From the NCBI RefSeq assembly GCF_003334385.1, contig NZ_QOWN01000022.1: 64,000 nucleotides of DNA. One strand, written 5' to 3'. Each line of letters opens with the position of its first letter. Within the stretch, counting starts at the first letter, position 1. The stretch is from Escherichia coli. GTDB lineage: Bacteria > Pseudomonadota > Gammaproteobacteria > Enterobacterales > Enterobacteriaceae. The notes beneath the pieces are model-generated. The model was not told the origin of the DNA. It was given only the letters and a program-made list of their open reading frames with translations, and searched no databases. Both the position numbers and the translations under genes were made by a program. This document shows, piece by piece, positions 43,040-55,642 of the stretch.

Positions 43040-43140
43040 GAGTAAACATCTTATTCGGGATTGCCGGATGCGACGCTGGCCGCGTCTTATCCGGCCTCCA
43101 TAAGAGTAGCCCGATACGCTTGCGCATCGGGCGCTATCCT
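43040..43140. repeat. REP-like palindromic element
   Basis: gccggatgcgacgctggccgcgtcttatccggcc between convergent dbpA and ttcA. Confidence 0.55.
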
Positions 43141-44129: not shown

Positions 44130-45365
44130 CTACGATAACCGCGCATTCAACATGGCTATCTGTTCGTCGTTCATGTCATCAATCCACATACCGTAAATTT
44201 CATACACCATCTGCGCAGTTTCATGCCCCATTTGGCTGGCTATAAATGCCGGGTTCGCTCCTGCCGTCAACAGCCAGCAGGCAAAAGTATGCCGCGTATG
44301 GTACGGATTACGGCGGCGAATACCAGCACGTTTTACTGCTGCATTCCACCTTGCCCCCAAACTGCTTACCGAGTAATAAGGTTTTTGTTTTCCGTTACAC
44401 ACCCTGGGCATGAAAACAAAATGCAGTTTTTGCTTTTCGGTTCTGCCGTACTCCCGATGATAAAAGGTGATTTCGCTTTTGCGATGATGCCCGGTCAGTT
44501 TGTATTGCTCCTTCAGTGCTTCAAGAGCAGGCTGCAGTAGTGTTACTGTTCGGATCCCGGCATTTGTTTTTGGGGGACCGAACATATCAAGTATCGTCAG
44601 GTTTCTTCTGACATTCACTATTCCCTTTTCGAGATCCACATCCTCCCACGCCAGAGCTGCCAGTTCCCCGTGACGAAGTCCTGAGTAAACGGCAAATTTC
44701 CACAAGTTCTGGCTCTGTCCTTTTTCACTTTCCATTAATGCATTGAATTCTGTTTTAGATAACGGATCAGGCTTTATTCTGTTTCGCTGTAATTTTTTTA
44801 CTCCTTCAAATGGTTTGGTTGATATAAATCCCGACTGATACGCAAAACGCAACAGCGAACAGAGCAGGGCGATATAGTTATCAACTGTGCGCACGGTTCT
44901 TCCTTTTTTGTTGGATCTTGGATTATCCAGGTAAAGCGTTTCTCCATGCAGCAGTTCATTCCGGTAGTTTAAGATATCGCTATAACGAATATGTGATATC
45001 GGGGTACTTTCACAAATTATTATTCTGAGTGTTTTTAATTGTGATTTCGTTTTCTTCATTGTGTTTGTTGTTAACTCTGTCTCTTTAATTTTTGTCCAGA
45101 TATCACAAAGCTCTCCGAACGTTTTTATGACTCTCGTTGTCACCATTTTTGCCCCAGTGCTGGACTGGGGAAAACGTCTTAAATACTCAAATTCACCGGA
45201 GTTTATTTCATGAACTATCAGCGCTCTTAAATTTCCGGCCTTTTTAATATTACTGTTTGTAATCTCCCAGCCTTTTAATGTTTCCCGACATCGTTTTCCT
45301 CGAAACATGAACCAGATGCGAATGTATCTACCTCTAATCTCGACACCTGTTGGTAATTTAGACAT
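44130..45365 (-). CDS. intR: prophage tyrosine integrase
   Basis: 411-aa ORF with C-terminal recombinase motifs (HTRHTFA ... Y). Confidence 0.9.
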   Translation of the reverse strand: MSKLPTGVEIRGRYIRIWFMFRGKRCRETLKGWEITNSNIKKAGNLRALIVHEINSGEFEYLRRFPQSSTGAKMVTTRVIKTFGELCDIWTKIKETELTTNTMKKTKSQLKTLRIIICESTPISHIRYSDILNYRNELLHGETLYLDNPRSNKKGRTVRTVDNYIALLCSLLRFAYQSGFISTKPFEGVKKLQRNRIKPDPLSKTEFNALMESEKGQSQNLWKFAVYSGLRHGELAALAWEDVDLEKGIVNVRRNLTILDMFGPPKTNAGIRTVTLLQPALEALKEQYKLTGHHRKSEITFYHREYGRTEKQKLHFVFMPRVCNGKQKPYYSVSSLGARWNAAVKRAGIRRRNPYHTRHTFACWLLTAGANPAFIASQMGHETAQMVYEIYGMWIDDMNDEQIAMLNARLS

Positions 45366-45366
45366 A

Positions 45367-45582
45367 TCATGAGTCTTTGATAAACTGATTTATCTTTGGA
45401 TAGTTGTACCAGATAATCCCTCGTTTGCTGTCTGGCTTACCTAAAGGAGATACTCGTTTGAAGTGGAAGCCCTCCACCCAACAGTTCTGGCGGTATGCTT
45501 CAATTTGTCTGGCCCCCAGACCAGTGCGAAGCATCAGGCCGTATTCAACCATCCACTCTTCATTAAAGATTACTTGTGCCAT
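45367..45582 (-). CDS. xisR: prophage excisionase-like protein
   Basis: small ORF directly upstream of int (ORF track 45367..45606). Confidence 0.65.
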
Positions 45583-45660
45583 CGCATCACCTCTGGCAGG
45601 CGCCAATGTTAGACTGAAATTGACGCCCGATGTTGATTATTAATAATCAGCTATGAAGTT

Positions 45661-45870
45661 TTAATTTGAATACAATGCAATTCTCGAGGACTGAAGTTTC
45701 TCGCAATTAAAATTTATCAGTTTTACTTTCTGCTCTCTGGAAACGCCTGCTTCTTTTTTACCTGAGAGCATTTTTTCGCATTCTGATTTCGTTAGTTTAG
45801 ATTTTGAATATCTTGTCCAGTTAGTAGGAGTGCCACCTTCCTTTTCAATAGTGGCGGTAATTTTATACAT
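45661..45870 (-). CDS. ydaC: Rac prophage small protein
   Basis: 69-aa reading from internal Met MYKITATIEKEGG of ORF 45661..45942. Confidence 0.6.
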   Translation of the reverse strand: MYKITATIEKEGGTPTNWTRYSKSKLTKSECEKMLSGKKEAGVSREQKVKLINFNCEKLQSSRIALYSN

Positions 45871-46057
45871 GAACACCTCCATTATTATTTCCAGTGGTTC
45901 GTTTATTCCATCTTTCGAGTGCTTCTTTTTCACTTCCACCATAACCGGTTCGGGATTCGCATCCGTTACACTTCGCTCGGTAATATCCTGAAATGGCTTT
46001 CACCGTTACTGATGGACAACCACAAAATGGACATGGTTTAACATTGTCATATCTCAT
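45863..46057 (-). CDS. ralR: restriction alleviation protein Lar/RalR
   Basis: ORF track 45863..46069; Cys-rich MRYDNVKPCPFCGC...CNGC. Confidence 0.7.
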   Translation of the reverse strand: MRYDNVKPCPFCGCPSVTVKAISGYYRAKCNGCESRTGYGGSEKEALERWNKRTTGNNNGGVHV

Positions 46058-46112
46058 AATTTTTCTCATAAAAATATTTCAAGTTGGCGGTGCATTACAC
46101 CGCCAGGCTGAA

Positions 46113-46922
46113 TTATTCCTCTGAATTATCGATTACACTGTATTCCCCGGTTAATACAGAGGAATCTGCAGGATCGATTGTCAGTGGTTCCTTTTCATCC
46201 ATTGATACTGCACGCTGGATCTCAATTGATACGGGCAGATATTTGAACAGGCGACGAATAGCCGTTTTCTTTGCCATTTCTTCCCAGTGAGTTACCCACG
46301 GCCCGTTATTACCAGCTTTACTCAGGCTGCGCACCAGCTCAATCTGTTTGCGCGTCATAACTTCAAACTGAGTACCTCCGTCTTTCAGTCTTGCGACAGC
46401 ATAGACGTGGGTAACCGGGGCATCTTCGTTTTCTCCCGGGCGGTGTATTAACTTTTCATCAAGGCCAAATTCGAAGCTAAACTCGTCACCTTCACGGACA
46501 ACACGGGCTGACAGGCTGGCGATTTGACCAGAACGGCGAGCCAGATCAATCATGCCGCGATAGCCAATGATTAGCTGAACGTTCTTTTTACCGCTCTTTT
46601 CGTTTTTATTACCAAAAGGCAGTAAATATGCATGACCGAGGGCGCTACCTGGCTCAAGTCCGAGCTGTGAACACTGTACGATCGCACTGACAAAACTCAT
46701 AGTGTCACAGTTTCCTAACGCCGGAACTTTACGAATTTCTGTGGTGGCGATACGGATCATACGTTCAGCCGTCATATGGCGTGGAAGAGCTGCTGCCAGT
46801 TGCTCTTTCATTGATGGCTGGTTAATAAAACTAATCACGTCGCTATTTTTAACTGCTGCTGGTGCACGGTTTCCCTGAGTTTTTTGCAGATCGGCTTTTG
46901 CGATTGGTGGTTGCTTAGTCAT
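46113..46922 (-). CDS. recT: RecT single-strand annealing recombinase
   Basis: ORF track 46113..46979; recognised RecT start [13 protein letters not shown]. Confidence 0.92.
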
Positions 46923-49515
46923 TTGCATATTCCTTAGCCCAGCGGGGCAGTGATAATGTCTTAATAGCTGGCCATTCATCGGTATTCAGGCAGTCAGACA
47001 GGGTTCGCAGATTGCGGTGATATTCCTGTTGACCTGCCAGTTTTGCTTCTTCGCCCATCATGAAAATTTCAACCGGATAACGTCCGCATTCAATAGTTGT
47101 GCTGGCAACCAGAAAAACGAAAGTTGGCTGCACTCCAAACTGTGCTTCATAACCGTCACTGTAGAATGCATCCTGAACGTGATAGCGGTAGTCGTAATAA
47201 GCGGTTTTGAATCGTTGAATATCCGCCGTAGTTTTCACGTCCATGATCCAGTGAAATTCAGGGATAATTTTGTCCGGACGGCACCGACACAAAATTCCTG
47301 TTTCAGGATCTTCCCAGTAAATTGATGATTCAGCGTGTCCGGCGCTTTCAACAAGCCATTGCCCCAGCGGCAAAGCCATAACGCTTTGATACATGAGTTC
47401 AATTTTCCGGCCTTCTTCCGCAGTGATAACCGTTTTTCCTGTGCTTGCGCATTCCATCAGAAACGCTTTCTCTTCTTCTTTTCCGGCGTTTGTACGGCGG
47501 TTAAATTCAGGTGCTACGATAAAGCGGTTACTGAATTCTTCCGGTTCAAGTACCCGGCAGTGGAAAGCAGTTCCTAAATCGAGCGTTTTTGTCTTTGTGG
47601 TGTTCACGGGGGCATTTTTACGCCACAAATATAGTGCCGGAGTATCAGCAATGTCATCGAGCTGAGACTTACTGATACCGGGACCCGCGTGGTAATTCTC
47701 ATTCGAAATTCCGTAATAAATACCTGGCTCTATGTCTTCTACGATTACGGGATCTGCGACTTCGCCAGTTTCATCACTGCAATCGCGATGCGGATCGCTG
47801 CCAGCATTCTCATTGTGCGGATGTTCAGCGCCTTCCATTTCCTCCGGATCATTTTCCTTAGCTTCAACCTGACTCTCTTCATCGAATGTTTCCTGGTATG
47901 TTGCGTCGCCCATCACCGCACCACAGTCAGGGCCGTTATCCCCGCCAGTCTGGCCGCAGGCATTGCAGGCTATTTCCGGTTCCTGTTGCACTACTGGCTC
48001 AGGTTGATTCATATCTGGGCTGGTTTTTTCCGTTTCTGGCTGGTTCTGGTACACACAATCGCGAGTCTGGATCCCCTTTACCCATTTCGGATCGTTCGGG
48101 TCGCTAATTCCGTCAACAAATTCACCACGTGATGCAGCAAGCAATTTATCGGCATCGACAGGATTTTTTGATGGAATGTTTTTCCGGGCTTCATGGAGTT
48201 CTGCCCGCAGTTCCTGATATTTCGCATCAACAGAATTTACCTGTGACTGAGCATCCAGCGGCTGCGTGTCCTGATGATGTTCAGTTGCGTCCGGTTCCAT
48301 TGTTTCAGCCTCTCCCTGTTCAACTGCCGTTGTTCCAGATGGTTGCGGTTTTTCTTCATCATCCTGTTTTCCTTCTTCTGTTACTCGCTGCGGCATCGGG
48401 GCAGAGGAGCGACCGCAGGCAATATCCACGATTTCCGGATCAGGGTTGGCATGATCGGTTTCAGTCAGTACTTTGTTCAGATATTCAGTGACGTGCGCGG
48501 GGATGACCTCGATCCCAATTGGTGCTTCTTTTACGGACGCAACCACGATGGCGCGCGAATAATCCAGCCCGCCAGGCATGGTGATGAATTTGTCGCGGAA
48601 AACAGAAAAGGGCGGTTTATTTTCAGCGATAATTTCCTCAATGCGTTTAGCGTGTGCCGGATGAAGGTTATAGATGTCCAGATCCATTGAACGGGCCAGT
48701 ACGCCAGTGGCTACGTCGCGCGCCAGTGACGTCAGATCGTGTACGAAACCTTCGCCGCGATCGGTGAGGTTTCCGCCGCCAGCATTAGCACCGGAAGCCG
48801 TGCGAGTGATGTGTGAAACACGATTACCCTTCATCCACTCTTTTGTCAGCAGTCCTCGATCGGTGTAGTCAGCGTTCAGGTATGCTTCGAAAAAAGCAGT
48901 TATCAGTCCCAGGTTTGAATTACCAGGATTAGGGAAAACTTTGTCAGTGTCACGAACCAGTTTGTGGAGTTCGCGAATTTCCAGCGGGTCGAGCAGGCTG
49001 GTTTTGTGGGAAACAGCCAGGGCAGTAACAGCCGGTAGTTCTTCAGCCCGAGCAATGTGTAATGCCTGGAGTCCGTCGCGTGAAACGTGCGTTACCGGTT
49101 TTTCGCTGCCGTGTTGAGCAAGCCAACGAATGGGCAGTTCCTGGCCAGAAATTGGGAGTAGCATATTCTCCTCAATCTCAGTCATGTCTTCGCCGTTGAC
49201 GTTGGTATTGCCTTGATAGTGAGCGTTGTCTGGTGCTGCTCCCGGTTTTAGTTCCCATGTCATGGAGTCTTTGCTGAGTTGATAGCGTTCACTCCAGGTA
49301 AAATCGATCTCACCTTCAGCGGGCAGGTCATTAACGACAGGAAAATTCGTGGCAACAGCTTTAAAATAGCTGCTCAGTTTTTTACCTGACTTAACGATCA
49401 GGTAGTCCAGAGTGGCACAGGTCGATTCAAAATCGTTGCTTGCCCACAGGACGACGTCAGGTTCACCGGATGATTTTTTCGCTTTCCGTAACAGGAAGAG
49501 TGGTTTTGTGCTCAT
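46915..49515 (-). CDS. recE: exonuclease VIII (RecE)
   Basis: 866-aa ORF overlapping recT start; acidic low-complexity middle region; C-terminal nuclease. Confidence 0.92.
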
Positions 49516-49616: not shown

Positions 49617-49892
49617 TCAGATTTCACCTTTTAATTTCATTGCAATTAGAGTTGCCAGAAATTCGGCTTTTTTTTCTGCGGGCAGATTCTTTCCGATATG
49701 CACCAGGCACATTTTTTTGACACCTTCATCAAGTGTTTTTACGTTGCCTGATGGACCATCGATATCAACCACAGTGAATGGGGTTTCTTTATTTTCTGTT
49801 TTAATTACGTAGCCAATGCGCTTTCCTTCCAGATTCACCTCGTGAACAATGTCATCGGTAGTTACAACAGTGGCTTCATAATTGGTAATCAT
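49617..49892 (-). CDS. racC: Rac prophage protein RacC
   Basis: ORF track 49617..49940; start MITNYEATVVTTDD. Confidence 0.8.
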   Translation of the reverse strand: MITNYEATVVTTDDIVHEVNLEGKRIGYVIKTENKETPFTVVDIDGPSGNVKTLDEGVKKMCLVHIGKNLPAEKKAEFLATLIAMKLKGEI

Positions 49893-49966: not shown

Positions 49967-50137
49967 TTAAAGTTCATGTGCCATCTGGTCTTTTTCGGCA
50001 CAAGCTTCACTGCAATATTTTCTCGGTTCGTCTTTTGATAAAATCCCGTGCATGAAGTGAAGCATTCTTTCAATAGCTTTGCTTTTTTCAACGTCTTTTT
50101 TGCAAAGGTGGTAAGCACATTTTATTTTCTTAGTCAT
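49967..50137 (-). CDS. ydaE: small Cys-rich zinc-binding protein (56 aa)
   Basis: minus-strand [59 protein letters not shown], below ORF-track cutoff. Confidence 0.7.
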   Translation of the reverse strand: MTKKIKCAYHLCKKDVEKSKAIERMLHFMHGILSKDEPRKYCSEACAEKDQMAHEL

Positions 50138-50358
50138 CACCATGACTCCGCCTTTACAGGTAAACCATCACGACCGAGGAAGACTTTAATCATGCGGTCA
50201 GTAATGCATGTTTTTGTGGTCAGGTTACGAATATATAGTTTTCGCTTTTTAATATTGTTTGCCGAGGCAATATATGTCCGGCCTTCATGAAGAACATAAT
50301 CGCCAGGAGTCACACACTGACGTGGTATTTCATCAGTTCCGAAGTGATGTGCAATCAT
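50137..50358 (-). CDS. kilR: FtsZ-targeting killing protein KilR
   Basis: ORF track 50137..50370; start [14 protein letters not shown]. Confidence 0.85.
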
Positions 50359-50799
50359 AATTATCTCCATTTTTACAAATGAACTTTGTTGATGCGGTGC
50401 CTGGTGCCTCCAGGTGACTGCAACCAGTTAACAATTACAGTCGGCTTTCCCACCCAAACCAATAAGGACTAACATGACTTTTAACTGTGCCACGTGCGCT
50501 TAGCCGCATTCACCGCATCACAAAATTCACTTTAAAAAGGGCGGACATCAGCCGAACTTCAAGAAAAAAACTGATGCCGCCAGGACTACACACAGCAATG
50601 TCGTTATTTACAACCGGAGGCGCACTCCCACCATTTAAATTTAACAGACAAGACCGACTCTTTATGGATATCGGAAATGCGCCTTCGTGTTGTGCCCGGT
50701 TTTATTTCACCACCTCCGGGCTTCGGTGGTCTCGGCTATACCCCTACAGCGAGAGCTTGTGTTAACATTTCAATACCCTTACAGTTGAGAGTTATTGAT

Positions 50800-51288
50800 A
50801 TGTTGGATGTATTTACTCCATTGTTGAAACTTTTTGCTAACGAGCCACTCGAAAGACTTATGTATACGATTATCATTTTTGGTCTCACTCTCTGGCTGAT
50901 ACCGAAAGAGTTTACTGTCGCATTCAATGCTTATACTGAAATACCTTGGCTCTTTCAGATTATCGTTTTTGCCTTTTCTTTCGTGGTCGCCATTTCCTTC
51001 TCAAGATTGCGAGCACATATTCAAAAGCATTATTCATTACTACCAGAGCAACGAGTATTGCTTCGTTTATCTGAGAAAGAAATCGCTGTATTTAAAGATT
51101 TCCTTAAAACAGGAAATCTTATTATCACTTCTCCTTGCCGTAACCCGGTTATGAAAAAATTAGAACGGAAGGGCATCATTCAACATCAGAGTGATAGCGC
51201 AAACTGTTCTTATTATCTCGTCACCGAAAAATACTCCCATTTTATGAAGTTATTCTGGAACAGCAGGAGTAGACGTTTTAATCGTTAG
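50800..51288 (+). CDS. sieB: superinfection exclusion protein SieB
   Basis: ORF track 50677..51288; start at internal Met MLDVFTPLLK; TM segments. Confidence 0.8.
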   Translation: MLDVFTPLLKLFANEPLERLMYTIIIFGLTLWLIPKEFTVAFNAYTEIPWLFQIIVFAFSFVVAISFSRLRAHIQKHYSLLPEQRVLLRLSEKEIAVFKDFLKTGNLIITSPCRNPVMKKLERKGIIQHQSDSANCSYYLVTEKYSHFMKLFWNSRSRRFNR

Positions 51289-51440
51289 CTTACTGTGTGC
51301 TTCTCCAACCATCGGCGCGCACCAGTTTCGGTTTTAAATATTTTGCTTTTTGTATACGTCATCGCGGTGAACGTTCCATCCTGGTTGGGGAACACGCCGC
51401 ACACCAGGGATTCGTTATTGCGGAGGTCGATTTTTTGCAT
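51285..51440 (-). CDS. ydaF: Rac prophage small protein (51 aa)
   Basis: minus-strand ORF MQKIDLRNNESLVCGVFPNQDGTFTAMTYTKSKIFKTETGARRWLEKHTVS. Confidence 0.65.
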   Translation of the reverse strand: MQKIDLRNNESLVCGVFPNQDGTFTAMTYTKSKIFKTETGARRWLEKHTVS

Positions 51441-51450
51441 TTTTCGCACC

Positions 51451-51585
51451 TCACATTTTGTTGTTGCGGATAGAGGCTTCTGCCTGCCAGAGATCCCAGT
51501 CGTTGCTGCGTAAAGCCTGCACAGCCTGGTTGTAAGTGATGCCGCAACAATCCATCAAATACTGAACTACTTCGTAATGCACCAT
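51451..51585 (-). CDS. ydaG: Rac prophage small protein (44 aa)
   Basis: minus-strand ORF MVHYEVVQYLMDCCGITYNQAVQALRSNDWDLWQAEASIRNNKM. Confidence 0.65.
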   Translation of the reverse strand: MVHYEVVQYLMDCCGITYNQAVQALRSNDWDLWQAEASIRNNKM

Positions 51586-51893: not shown

Positions 51894-52370
51894 TTAAGTT
51901 CCAGTTTTTGTGATGTTCTGGCTTTTCCGTTCAGATTCTAGAGCTTTCAGATACTTACCCACTTTCATTTCCATCGCTGCTATGTAGGCGCGAACATCGT
52001 GGTCAACCCAATCTGGTTCTGTAGCATTTCCAGATAACAGGAAAGCTACAATCGCTCTTATTTCATCAGAGGCTGCTTGATAAAGGTTGTTTATATCTAA
52101 AAGTTCACTTTTTGTATCTGAATTGGTGGGGGTTGGTATGGGGTATTCGTTAAGCCCCCAATGCTCTGGACCAACAACATCAGAAAAGAAACGCCATAAT
52201 TCTGGAAGTTTATCTTTACTTATAGAGCCTTTCTTAATCCAGTCATAAATTGATGGTGGTTGGACTTTGAAGTGGCGTGCGACCTCCGCCTTTGATTTGA
52301 CGGATCCCGATGCGATTTTTTTGTTAATGGCCTGCTCTATCGCTCGGCCTAAGTCTTTACCACTAAGCAT
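51894..52370 (-). CDS. racR: prophage repressor RacR
   Basis: 158-aa ORF with N-terminal HTH, divergent from ydaS. Confidence 0.88.
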   Translation of the reverse strand: MLSGKDLGRAIEQAINKKIASGSVKSKAEVARHFKVQPPSIYDWIKKGSISKDKLPELWRFFSDVVGPEHWGLNEYPIPTPTNSDTKSELLDINNLYQAASDEIRAIVAFLLSGNATEPDWVDHDVRAYIAAMEMKVGKYLKALESERKSQNITKTGT

Positions 52371-53247: not shown

Positions 53248-54105
53248 ATGCTGTTTGTGCTTATTCTAAGCAACCGGGCAGCATCATACGGGGCAATTAT
53301 GGCCGCATTACCATACATGCAACTGTACATAGCTGATTACCTGGCTGACACCATGCATTTGTCAGCAGAGGAGCACGGTGCGTATTTGTTGCTGATGTTC
53401 AATTACTGGCAAACAGGAAAGCCAATACCCAAAAACAGGCTGGTAAAAATTGCCCGCCTGACTAACGAGCGATGGGCTGATGTTGAACCATCCTTGCGGG
53501 AGTTTTTTTGCGATAACGGCGAGGAATGGGTGCATCTTCGGATTGAGGAAGATCTGGCATCAGTCAGGGAAAAATTAACCAAAAAATCAGCCGCAGGAAA
53601 AGCATCGGTTCAGGCCAGAAGAAGCAGAAAGGAAGCAGATGTTCAAACAAAACAAGAGAGAAATTTAACAGGTGTTCAAACAGATGTTGAAGTGGTGTTT
53701 GAACATGATGTCAACACAAAGGCAACTAATAAAGATACAGATAAAGATCTAAAAACAGATCCCCCCCTAAATCCCCCCCGGGGGAATCGAGGTGTTAAAA
53801 AGTTTGACCCTCTGGATATTGCTTTGCCGAACTGGATTTCTGTCTCGCTTTGGCGTGAGTGGGTTGAATTTCGCCAGGCATTGCGTAAACCGATTCGAAC
53901 GGAGCAGGGCGCTAACGGGGCGATACGGGAGCTGGAAAAATTCCGCCAGCAGGGTTTTTCACCTGAGCAGGTGATTAGACACAGCATTGCCCATGAATAC
54001 CAGGGCTTGTTTGCGCCGAAAGGCGTTCGGCCTGAGACGTTGCTTCGACAGGTTAACACCGTCTCGTTTCCGGACAGTGCGATCCCACCAGGCTTCAGGG
54101 GGTAA
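53248..54105 (+). CDS. ydaU: replication-module protein (O-like position)
   Basis: 285-aa ORF; synteny. Confidence 0.8.
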   Translation: MLFVLILSNRAASYGAIMAALPYMQLYIADYLADTMHLSAEEHGAYLLLMFNYWQTGKPIPKNRLVKIARLTNERWADVEPSLREFFCDNGEEWVHLRIEEDLASVREKLTKKSAAGKASVQARRSRKEADVQTKQERNLTGVQTDVEVVFEHDVNTKATNKDTDKDLKTDPPLNPPRGNRGVKKFDPLDIALPNWISVSLWREWVEFRQALRKPIRTEQGANGAIRELEKFRQQGFSPEQVIRHSIAHEYQGLFAPKGVRPETLLRQVNTVSFPDSAIPPGFRG

Positions 54106-54111
54106 CGAAGC

Positions 54112-54858
54112 ATGAAAAATATTGCGACAGGCGGCGTTCTGGAACGTATCCGCAGACTGGCCCCGCCACATGTAACCGCGCCATTCAGGACGGTGGCGGA
54201 GTGGCGCGAGTGGCAACTTGCAGAAGGCCAGAAACGTTGTGAGGAGATCAACCGTCAGAATCGTCAGTTGCGGGTGGAAAAAATCCTGAATCGCTCCGGC
54301 ATCCAGTCGTTGCACCGCAAATGCTCGTTTTCGAATTACCAGGTGCAGAACGAAGGGCAGCGATACGCGTTGAGTCAGGCGAAATCCATCGCTGATGAAC
54401 TGATGACCGGGTGTACAAATTTTGCGTTCAGCGGAAAACCTGGTACCGGAAAAAACCATCTGGCGGCGGCTATCGGGAATCGCCTGCTGAAAGATGGCCA
54501 GACAGTGATTGTGGTTACCGTGGCTGATGTCATGAGTGCCCTACACGCCAGCTATGACGACGGGCAATCAGGCGAAAAATTTTTGCGGGAACTGTGCCAA
54601 GTGGATCTGCTGGTTCTTGATGAAATTGGCATTCAGCGCGAGACAAAAAACGAGCAGGTGGTGCTGCACCAGATTGTTGATCGCCGGACAGCGTCGATGC
54701 GCAGCGTGGGGATGCTGACAAACCTGAATTATGAGGCCATGAAAACATTGCTCGGCGAGAGGATTATGGATCGCATGACCATGAACGGCGGGCGATGGGT
54801 GAATTTTAACTGGGAGAGCTGGCGTCCGAATGTCGTCCAGCCAGGAATTGCGAAGTAA
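54112..54858 (+). CDS. ydaV: DnaC-like helicase loader (AAA+)
   Basis: 248-aa ORF with Walker [11 protein letters not shown] and Walker B LLVLDEIG. Confidence 0.88.
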
Positions 54859-54880
54859 TTTTTACCGGGAGAAAAATTTA

Positions 54881-55642
54881 ATGGAGACTGTTTTTGACGC
54901 ACTGAAAGCAATGGGAAAAGCTACATCCATAGAACTTGCTGCGCGACTTGATATCAGCCGTGAAGAAGTGCTGAACGAACTATGGGAACTGAAAAAGGCT
55001 GGTTTCGTTGATAAAAGCGCGTACACCTGGCGTGTGGCTGATAACAACGTTCAGCAGGAACAGCCAGCGCCGGCAGAACTGCCGGAAGAAACTACCACGG
55101 CAACAGTCGCGAAAATTTCAGAGAGCGATTTAACTGCGACGATTGAACAACGTGGTCCACTAACTGCGGATGAACTGGCTACGTTGTTCGGTACCACATC
55201 CCGCAAAGTGGCTTCAACGCTGGCAATGGCAATCAGCAAAGCTCGTCTGATTCGCGTTAATCAGAACGGTAAATTTCGTTACTGCATGCCGGGCGGTAAT
55301 TTACCAGCAGAGCCGAAAGCTGCATCGGTAGCGGAAACAGATGGTAAAGCCTTTCCTCAGCTAGCCGGTGTTGCGTTACCAGTACAGGAAGCTGCAACAC
55401 AGGAAGATATTAAAACAGAAACTGTGGCGGACATTGTGCAGTCGTTGCCATCGTTTACTGAAACGCAAGCGGATAACCTGATTTTACCATCGCTGCATAT
55501 GGCAAACCGTGAACTGCGTCGGGCGAAAAATCATGTCCAGAAGTGGGAGCGAGTCTGCGCCGCGCTGCGGGAGCTGAACAAGCACCGGGATATTGTTCGA
55601 CAGATTACTGATTCTTCCCGCCGTGTTGTATCGGAAAAGTGA
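54881..55642 (+). CDS. ydaW: prophage protein with N-terminal winged-helix-like region, full length
   Basis: ORF track 54830..55642; start at ATG 54881 ([13 protein letters not shown]) avoids overlap with ydaV. Confidence 0.6.

Follow-up and report, generated by a model that had tools for sequence, protein, structure and literature searches.

The DNA analysed here (hereafter the window) is a stretch of 64,000 nt from the Escherichia coli contig NZ_QOWN01000022.1. We transferred the curated features of the K-12 MG1655 record NC_000913.3 to the window by BLAST. The results placed the int-proximal arm of the E. coli prophage Rac, which is inserted next to ttcA, at about 43.1-53.3 kb of the window. 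The minus strand carries intR (44130-45365), the excisionase gene xisR (45367-45582, also assigned by PHROG), rcbA or ydaC (45661-45870), which encodes a 69-aa DUF1187 protein, and ralR or lar (45863-46057), which encodes a 64-aa Lar-family protein reported to be a DNase toxin. These are followed by recT (46113-46922), recE (46915-49515), racC (49617-49892), ydaE for a 56-aa member of a zinc-binding protein family (49967-50137), kilR for a 73-aa FtsZ inhibitor (50137-50358) and kilS, an sRNA with a DicF-like 3' hairpin in the kilR 5' UTR (50534-50631). Further along the same strand lie ydaF for a 51-aa DUF1391 protein (51285-51440), ydaG for a 44-aa protein (51451-51585) and racR (51894-52370). 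The plus strand carries ralA, a 179-nt antitoxin sRNA (45686-45864), and sieB (50800-51288). The order of the array is thus ydaG-ydaF...kilS-kilR-ydaE-racC-recE-recT-ralR-rcbA-xisR-intR, next to ttcA.

From ttcA to ralR, every gene was 100% identical to K-12 MG1655, and the remaining Rac genes were 94.8-100% identical with no stops; recT differed by a single synonymous change, and kilS was 100% identical to b4833. For intR, xisR, rcbA (b1347), ralA (b4714) and ralR (b1348), identity was 100% and the gene order the same as in NC_000913.3. The ralR-rcbA-ralA locus (K-12 1413531-1413927) has the same position in both genomes, between recT and xisR-intR next to ttcA, and is the same base for base, including the gene overlap, the antisense RalA and its 16-nt complementarity to ralR, with no difference at the junction. 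Judged by sequence, the locus is the K-12 Rac ralR/rcbA/ralA locus itself and is already known, and the gene identities given in the initial annotation were right. The strain is not K-12, because the complete genome closest to the window is that of SCU-104 (99.9%).

Differences from K-12 lie elsewhere and consist of a T run at 46070 that is one base shorter, a few substitutions and a patch of 16 substitutions in ydaF and ydaG. The T run is in the ralR leader just upstream of the gene, beside an in-frame ATG at 46069, and its change is the sole indel in the 11.7-kb alignment to K-12. The patch (51340-51541) extends across ydaF and ydaG with about 8% divergence, compared with less than 0.4% in the neighbouring genes. 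It was present at an identity of at least 99% in one of 5,426 complete E. coli genomes (SCU-104, 100%), the runner-up reaching 95.8%, and has the appearance of a short tract exchanged by recombination. Further right, beyond ydaT, at 53270-55320 (ydaU/ydaV), divergence from K-12 climbs to several percent while SCU-104 stays near-identical, suggesting that the Rac replication region contains a mosaic boundary. The Rac copy of SCU-104 has a frameshift in intR and internal stops in recE and ydaV; all three genes are intact in the window, whose Rac copy is therefore the less decayed one. Between dbpA and ttcA (43058-43096), weak palindromic matches to naRNA4, a REP-derived family, were found on both strands (25-29 bits; gathering score 59.5), and this site is probably a REP element.

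Direct reading of the minus strand at 45863-45870 (ATGTATAA) showed that the end of ralR overlaps the start of rcbA by exactly 8 nt, with the ralR TAA at 45865-45863 and the rcbA ATG at 45870-45868. The minus strand from 45890 to 45850 is AAATAATAATGGAGGTGTTCATGTATAAAATTACCGCCACT, and the junction reads ...AATAATAATGGAGGTGTTCATGTATAAAATT... in context. The curated K-12 record contains the identical overlap (rcbA 1413531-1413740, ralR 1413733-1413927), which confirmed the initial claim that ralR and ydaC share 8 nt. A GGAGG Shine-Dalgarno sequence for rcbA lies within the final ralR codons (45876-45880, minus strand), 5 nt 5' of the ATG. We compared this junction with homologous loci, comprising E. 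coli alleles (L010-L013, 91-95% DNA identity) and Klebsiella and metagenome loci (L003-L009, 62-67% protein identity). The 8-nt overlap was kept in all four E. coli variants, and the Shine-Dalgarno sequence was GGAGG in L011-L013 and GGAAG in L010. In three related loci (L004, L005 and L007), the Lar and DUF1187 genes are separated by an 18-nt gap, and in three others (L003, L008 and L009) the DUF1187 gene overlaps an unrelated upstream gene by 13 nt, so that the DUF1187 family does not depend on the 8-nt overlap. These findings indicate that the ralR/rcbA overlap is real but ordinary, well known and correctly annotated in E. coli. Upstream of ralR, the 55-nt recT-ralR spacer contains a perfect 7-bp GC-rich hairpin (46085-46103, GGCGGTG-TAATG-CACCGCC), which has no T run alongside and was not called by the terminator scan.

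At the kilR/ydaE junction (minus strand, GGCGGAGTCATGGTGATGACTAAG), the kilR TGA (50139-50137) and the ydaE ATG (50137-50135) share a single base, 50137, in the motif TGATG, so that the kilR stop does abut the ydaE start at 50137 as previously noted, with a one-base overlap. The ydaE Shine-Dalgarno sequence GGAG lies 8 nt upstream. The recE stop and the recT start overlap by 8 nt (46915-46922, ATGACTAA), and recT has the Shine-Dalgarno sequence AAGGA. Between the ydaG stop (51451) and the ydaF start (51440) there is a 10-nt spacer with a GAGGTG Shine-Dalgarno sequence, and the 3' end of ydaF overlaps only the convergent sieB, by 4 nt (51285-51288). Ten junctions between genes of the same strand lie in the interval from intR to ydaG. 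Three of them are overlaps (ralR/rcbA by 8 nt, recE/recT by 8 nt and kilR/ydaE by 1 nt), two others have a spacer of no more than 10 nt (xisR/intR with 1 nt, ydaG/ydaF with 10 nt), and the remaining gaps measure 55-101 nt, and 926 nt across sieB. The description of the genes as packed with short overlaps is overstated for ydaG and ydaF, which are separated. In the operons of bacteria and phages, neighbouring genes are usually spaced by such short stop/start overlaps (1, 4 or 8 nt). The short overlaps found here are a normal property of operons and no statistical anomaly.

The proteins encoded by the six small genes were compared with family models. RalR matched the NCBIfam equivalog NF007260 with 166 bits (cut-off 113) and TIGR03655 with 55.3 bits (cut-off 39.6), and its translation carries the Cys-rich motif CPFCG...CxxC. 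RcbA matched NF007283 with 141.6 bits (cut-off 92), and its homologues carry PF06688 (DUF1187); KilR matched NF008465 with 161.5 bits (cut-off 92), and YdaE matched NF041288 with 85 bits (cut-off 35). No NCBIfam model was found for YdaF and YdaG, which matched phrog_751 (E 3e-32) and phrog_14709 (E 3e-36), respectively. All eight proteins queried, including those of all six small genes, matched PHROG families. Against diverged alleles, dN/dS was 0.06-0.14 for ralR, 0.10-0.44 for ydaE, 0-0.17 for kilR, 0.05-0.12 for ydaF and 0.12-0.15 for ydaG, and 0.03-0.25 for rcbA wherever it could be computed. Relative to K-12, RalR and RcbA are identical, YdaE has E18K, KilR has F51C, YdaF has G7R and T34I, and YdaG has V37A, A38S and S41N. 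The check for frameshifts or stops relative to the K-12 proteins therefore found none in the six small genes, with 0-3 amino-acid changes in each. On these comparisons, all six small reading frames are intact, under purifying selection and real genes. Longer in-frame starts at ATG 46069 for ralR, ATG 45942 for rcbA and ATG 50143 for ydaE were rejected, as the homologues and the family profiles begin at the curated starts.

The initial annotation stated that several of these genes fall below 60 aa, and that automated annotation of this strain could miss them. The first statement applies to YdaE (56 aa), YdaF (51 aa) and YdaG (44 aa), but RalR (64 aa), RcbA (69 aa) and KilR (73 aa) exceed that length. 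The second was not borne out. In the PGAP annotation of SCU-104, rcbA, ralR, ydaE, kilR, ydaF and the 44-aa ydaG (as 'hypothetical protein') are all present. We also sampled genomes evenly down the rankings of E. coli matches, with 1,924 genomes matching ralR-rcbA, 4,201 matching ydaF-ydaG and 1,993 matching kilR-ydaE. Every sampled PGAP-annotated genome that covers the genes lists them, with the exception of O157 Sakai, the only full-length match without ralR. We rejected an annotation miss in Sakai, since its ralR was not overlooked but has a genuine premature stop (W50*). The view that the small genes are real but at risk of omission could draw on the length of three of them, only 44-56 aa, on the lack of an NCBIfam model for YdaF and YdaG, and on some metagenome gene callers, which choose a wrong 93-aa start for rcbA. 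We consider it unlikely, given that PGAP finds all six in SCU-104 as well as in the sampled genomes with full coverage, and that the sole exception is a real nonsense mutation. What PGAP does omit in SCU-104 are the ncRNAs ralA and kilS, both present in the curated K-12 record and not mentioned in the initial annotation. The 93-aa rcbA calls (ENA metagenome predictions P0002, P0004 and P0005) start from the upstream ATG at 45942 and would extend 80 nt into ralR. Because the diverged homologues all start at MYKITA, the correct form is the one of 69 aa, and the longer call is a start-site error, not a missed gene.

On the opposite strand, RalA matched Rfam RF02694 over its full length (1-179) with 225.1 bits (gathering score 170). 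It runs antisense to rcbA from codon 3 to codon 62, over 179 nt of the 210-nt rcbA ORF, and with the predicted 3' end its last two bases fall within the 8-nt ralR/rcbA overlap. Guo et al. (2014; PMC4041452) described RalR as a toxin with non-specific DNase activity and reported that ydaC DNA neutralises RalR through RalA, which acts with Hfq; they provided mutational evidence that neutralisation uses a 16-nt complementarity to ralR. In the window, the complementary segment is RalA nt 63-78 (45748-45763, plus strand), a position that agrees with the transcription start in PMC4041452, 62 nt upstream of the repeat. It pairs with the 16-nt ralR segment AAGTGAAAAAGAAGCA (45920-45935, minus strand; ralR nt 123-138), which matches rcbA nt 108-123, and 14 of the 16 bases pair, 11 of them contiguously. 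The pairing was judged by counting 16-mer repeats in place of full-length duplex prediction; the latter, applied to full-length ralR mRNA and the RalA equivalents, gave long duplexes that were no better than those of codon shuffles. The level of 14/16 was reached by 2 of 100 codon shuffles. The complementarity was 13/16 in other E. coli alleles and was not found in L005, L007 and L010, where the match was 11/16, the chance level.

At the distant loci examined, the RalA model scored 30-37 bits against the gathering score of 170, with many broken pairs. Pair counting in nine homologous sequences revealed no RalA covariation above slid controls, and the folding energy of RalA was ordinary (z = -0.26). 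Because of these two results, there is no evidence for a conserved RalA structure past the E. coli lineage. As far as the comparison of the loci examined goes, only the E. coli Rac lineage has RalA structure and ralR pairing.

The predicted 3' hairpin of RalA is weak (5-6 bp stem, 14-nt loop, GGUAAUUUU tail) and falls below the criteria of the terminator scan, which called no canonical terminator in either orientation between 45300 and 46200. In PMC4041452, the 3' end was likewise predicted from a weak hairpin and not mapped. The RalA end at 45864, inside the overlap, is uncertain because this hairpin is weak and was not called by the scan. At the other end, a promoter-like sequence (45620-45647, plus strand; TTGACG-16 nt-AATAAT, 10/12 matches) precedes the published 5' end of RalA by about 30 nt and is conserved among the E. 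coli variants. The sequence nearer the mapped start offers only a -10-like TACAAT (45671-45676; TATAAT in L012 and L013) and no good -35, so that a 5'-extended RalA is possible.

The coding status of ydaC is disputed in print, a point absent from the initial annotation. Guo et al. concluded that ydaC is not a protein gene, and under this explanation the open frame would be an accident of the opposite-strand ralA and the overlap an annotation artefact. In their study (PMC4041452), N-terminally His-tagged YdaC was undetected by western blot, and ydaC mutants in the start codon (T189C) or with a stop at codon 9 (C161A) still neutralised RalR; the extent of RalA over the rcbA ORF is compatible with it as well. 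These mutants show only that the RcbA protein is dispensable for antitoxin activity, and protein synthesis is not thereby excluded. The His tag may have been harmful where it was placed, because MYKITA at the N-terminus is the best-conserved stretch of the protein. Against the explanation stands the purifying selection in the rcbA frame. Besides the dN/dS values given above, the third codon position has an excess of differences (counts at positions one, two and three are, for example, 3/1/10 and 5/9/27), and no frame-breaking indels were found in aligned rcbA homologues with amino-acid identities as low as 59-63%. Synonymous sites are saturated in the pairs that have diverged most, where the ratio is undefined but the protein is still recognisable. 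An exhaustive search returned 84 DUF1187 cluster representatives at the 50% identity level. In an alignment of 52 sequences, the ORF and its MYKITA start are retained at identities of 38-63%, W18 is invariant and Y2, I4, K10, G12, P15, C31, G42, F54 and C56 are nearly so, a conservation specific to residues that include Trp, Cys, Gly and Pro.

The distribution of the family also argues against an accidental frame. A Lar/RalR gene lies upstream of the DUF1187 gene in the Rac type (8-nt overlap) and in L004, L005 and L007 (18-nt gap), whereas DUF1187 genes without a Lar gene upstream were found in L003, L008, L009 and L017-L020, the last four being stand-alone genes. The family has thus been kept even where a ralR gene to be neutralised is absent. 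As described above, the folding energy of RalA is ordinary and covariation does not exceed that of slid controls, and at the distant loci examined the RalA score is low and the 16-nt complementarity is at chance level. In addition, rcbA has a canonical GGAGG 5 nt before its ATG, and the AlphaFold2 model of RcbA predicts a beta-beta-alpha-beta fold with confidence (mean pLDDT 81.3). Taken together, selection, family membership, the ribosome-binding site and the predicted fold indicate that rcbA is a real DUF1187 protein gene and not just the back side of ralA. We regard the contrary explanation as very improbable, and the comparative sequence evidence contradicts the claim of PMC4041452 that ydaC encodes no protein. 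A DUF1187 profile search against PDB sequences gave only chance zinc-finger matches (E above 0.18), and no significant PDB match to the RcbA model was obtained with Foldseek; the top hit was the phage p56 uracil-DNA glycosylase inhibitor (E 0.37, TM 0.44-0.60), and we do not claim a fold relationship.

We consider it highly likely, taking all parts together, that the overlap is the ralR/rcbA junction of the leftward Rac array, that rcbA is a real DUF1187 gene, and that coupling and RacR control, as inferred here, apply to it. According to this reading, ralR and rcbA would be made from one transcript, and ribosomes that end ralR would re-initiate or pass on at the rcbA start, as the anatomy of the junction suggests (termination-reinitiation or translational coupling). 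The same coupling may link recT to recE and ydaE to kilR, whose overlaps also come with internal Shine-Dalgarno sequences; a same-strand stop/start overlap with the Shine-Dalgarno sequence inside the upstream gene was found for rcbA, ydaE and recT. A literature search found no measurement of translational coupling or co-transcription of ralR and rcbA. The RacR repressor would silence the whole array, and a fall in RacR would switch it on jointly. It has been reported that a drop in RacR expression raises ydaC, kilR and ralA more than 70-fold and ydaF, ydaG, ydaE and racC about 40-fold (PMC6765115), which fits a leftward early transcription unit under RacR control.

Alternatively, the overlaps may be neutral compact packing, with each small gene translated independently from its own ribosome-binding site. 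Each downstream gene does have its own Shine-Dalgarno sequence (GGAGG for rcbA, GGAG for ydaE and AAGGA for recT), an 18-nt gap or a 13-nt overlap replaces the 8-nt overlap in related loci that keep DUF1187, and distant DUF1187 members are stand-alone genes. However, overlap and Shine-Dalgarno sequence are invariant across the Rac-type alleles examined despite divergence at the silent sites of both genes (dS 0.2-1.4), and overlaps of 1, 4 and 8 nt between stop and start are the classic context for termination-reinitiation. Neutral packing is possible but, in our assessment, rather doubtful, and we favour coupled translation. Well-known cases of translationally coupled overlapping operon pairs are trpE/trpD and trpB/trpA, with the motif TGATG. 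The trp and the Rac pairs are alike in lying on the same strand, overlapping by 1 or 8 nt and having the downstream Shine-Dalgarno sequence inside the upstream gene; for the Rac pairs, coupling is suggested by this anatomy.

According to the literature (PMC4041452), RalA limits RalR by the 16-nt pairing with ralR mRNA, and it may also act in cis on any ralR-rcbA transcript. Pairing of RalA with a bicistronic ralR-rcbA mRNA is expected because RalA is fully complementary to rcbA over 179 nt, and native ralR mRNA thus probably carries a 179-nt perfect RalA target. A more far-reaching reading, which we offer tentatively and hold to be less probable than its negation, is that RcbA is a translated, folded product, ancestral and conserved at this locus and translationally coupled to RalR, that RalA is chiefly a full-length cis-antisense RNA to rcbA, and that the 16-nt trans pairing is a recent addition in E. 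coli Rac, so that nuclease, small protein and antisense RNA would together form a three-part module. If so, the locus would not be a simple two-part type I toxin-antitoxin pair, and the protein could account for part of the reported 'reduction of chromosome breaks'.

The locus is the same as that of the RalR/RalA type I toxin-antitoxin system (PMC4041452), and in the window RalA passes the Rfam threshold and RalR the NCBIfam equivalog cut-off. That study treats ydaC as non-coding and RalA as purely trans-acting, whereas the comparative data presented here show ydaC to be a conserved protein gene. Mutating or deleting ralA consequently also alters a conserved protein gene, rcbA, on the opposite strand, which matters for studies of RalR/RalA. 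The curated K-12 annotation, EcoCyc-derived RefSeq records and NCBI automated annotations of more than 1,000 genomes already contain the arrangement, so that finding it again matters little; the purifying selection on the ydaC frame, despite the 2014 claim of no protein, is a modest addition.

The distal part of the array has a parallel in the dicBF operon of the Qin prophage, which has the order ydfA-ydfB-ydfC-dicF-dicB. In Rac, a DUF1391 gene likewise comes first, followed by the DicF-like sRNA KilS and then by a small division inhibitor gene, kilR. ydaF matches Qin ydfA at about 85% DNA identity, and the ydaF...kilS-kilR layout parallels ydfA...dicF-dicB because ydaF is the DUF1391 homologue of ydfA. 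The two differ in that KilS falls below the DicF gathering threshold and that sieB is inserted on the opposite strand in Rac; KilR and DicB are not treated as homologues. KilS is a northern-verified sRNA in the kilR 5' UTR (PMC8175672). Its 3' 56 nt matched Rfam DicF (RF00039) with 39.1 bits (E 3e-7), below the gathering score of 48; the terminal hairpin of DicF is conserved and the 5' single-stranded part differs. KilS therefore resembles DicF but, with a score under the gathering threshold, is not filed as a DicF member. The rest of the kilR 5' UTR (50351-50537, minus strand) gave an STnc100 match of 35.5 bits, below 47.

Finally, two proteins from related E. coli genomes (P0037 and P0083) are natural RalR::RcbA fusion ORFs, and P0083 joins exactly at the 16-nt RalA/ralR repeat. 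The fusions look like deletions between short EKE-coding direct repeats of ralR and rcbA. The stop at W50 of O157 Sakai ralR lies within L016 6764-6958. Both the fusions and the Sakai stop would be predicted to inactivate the toxin.
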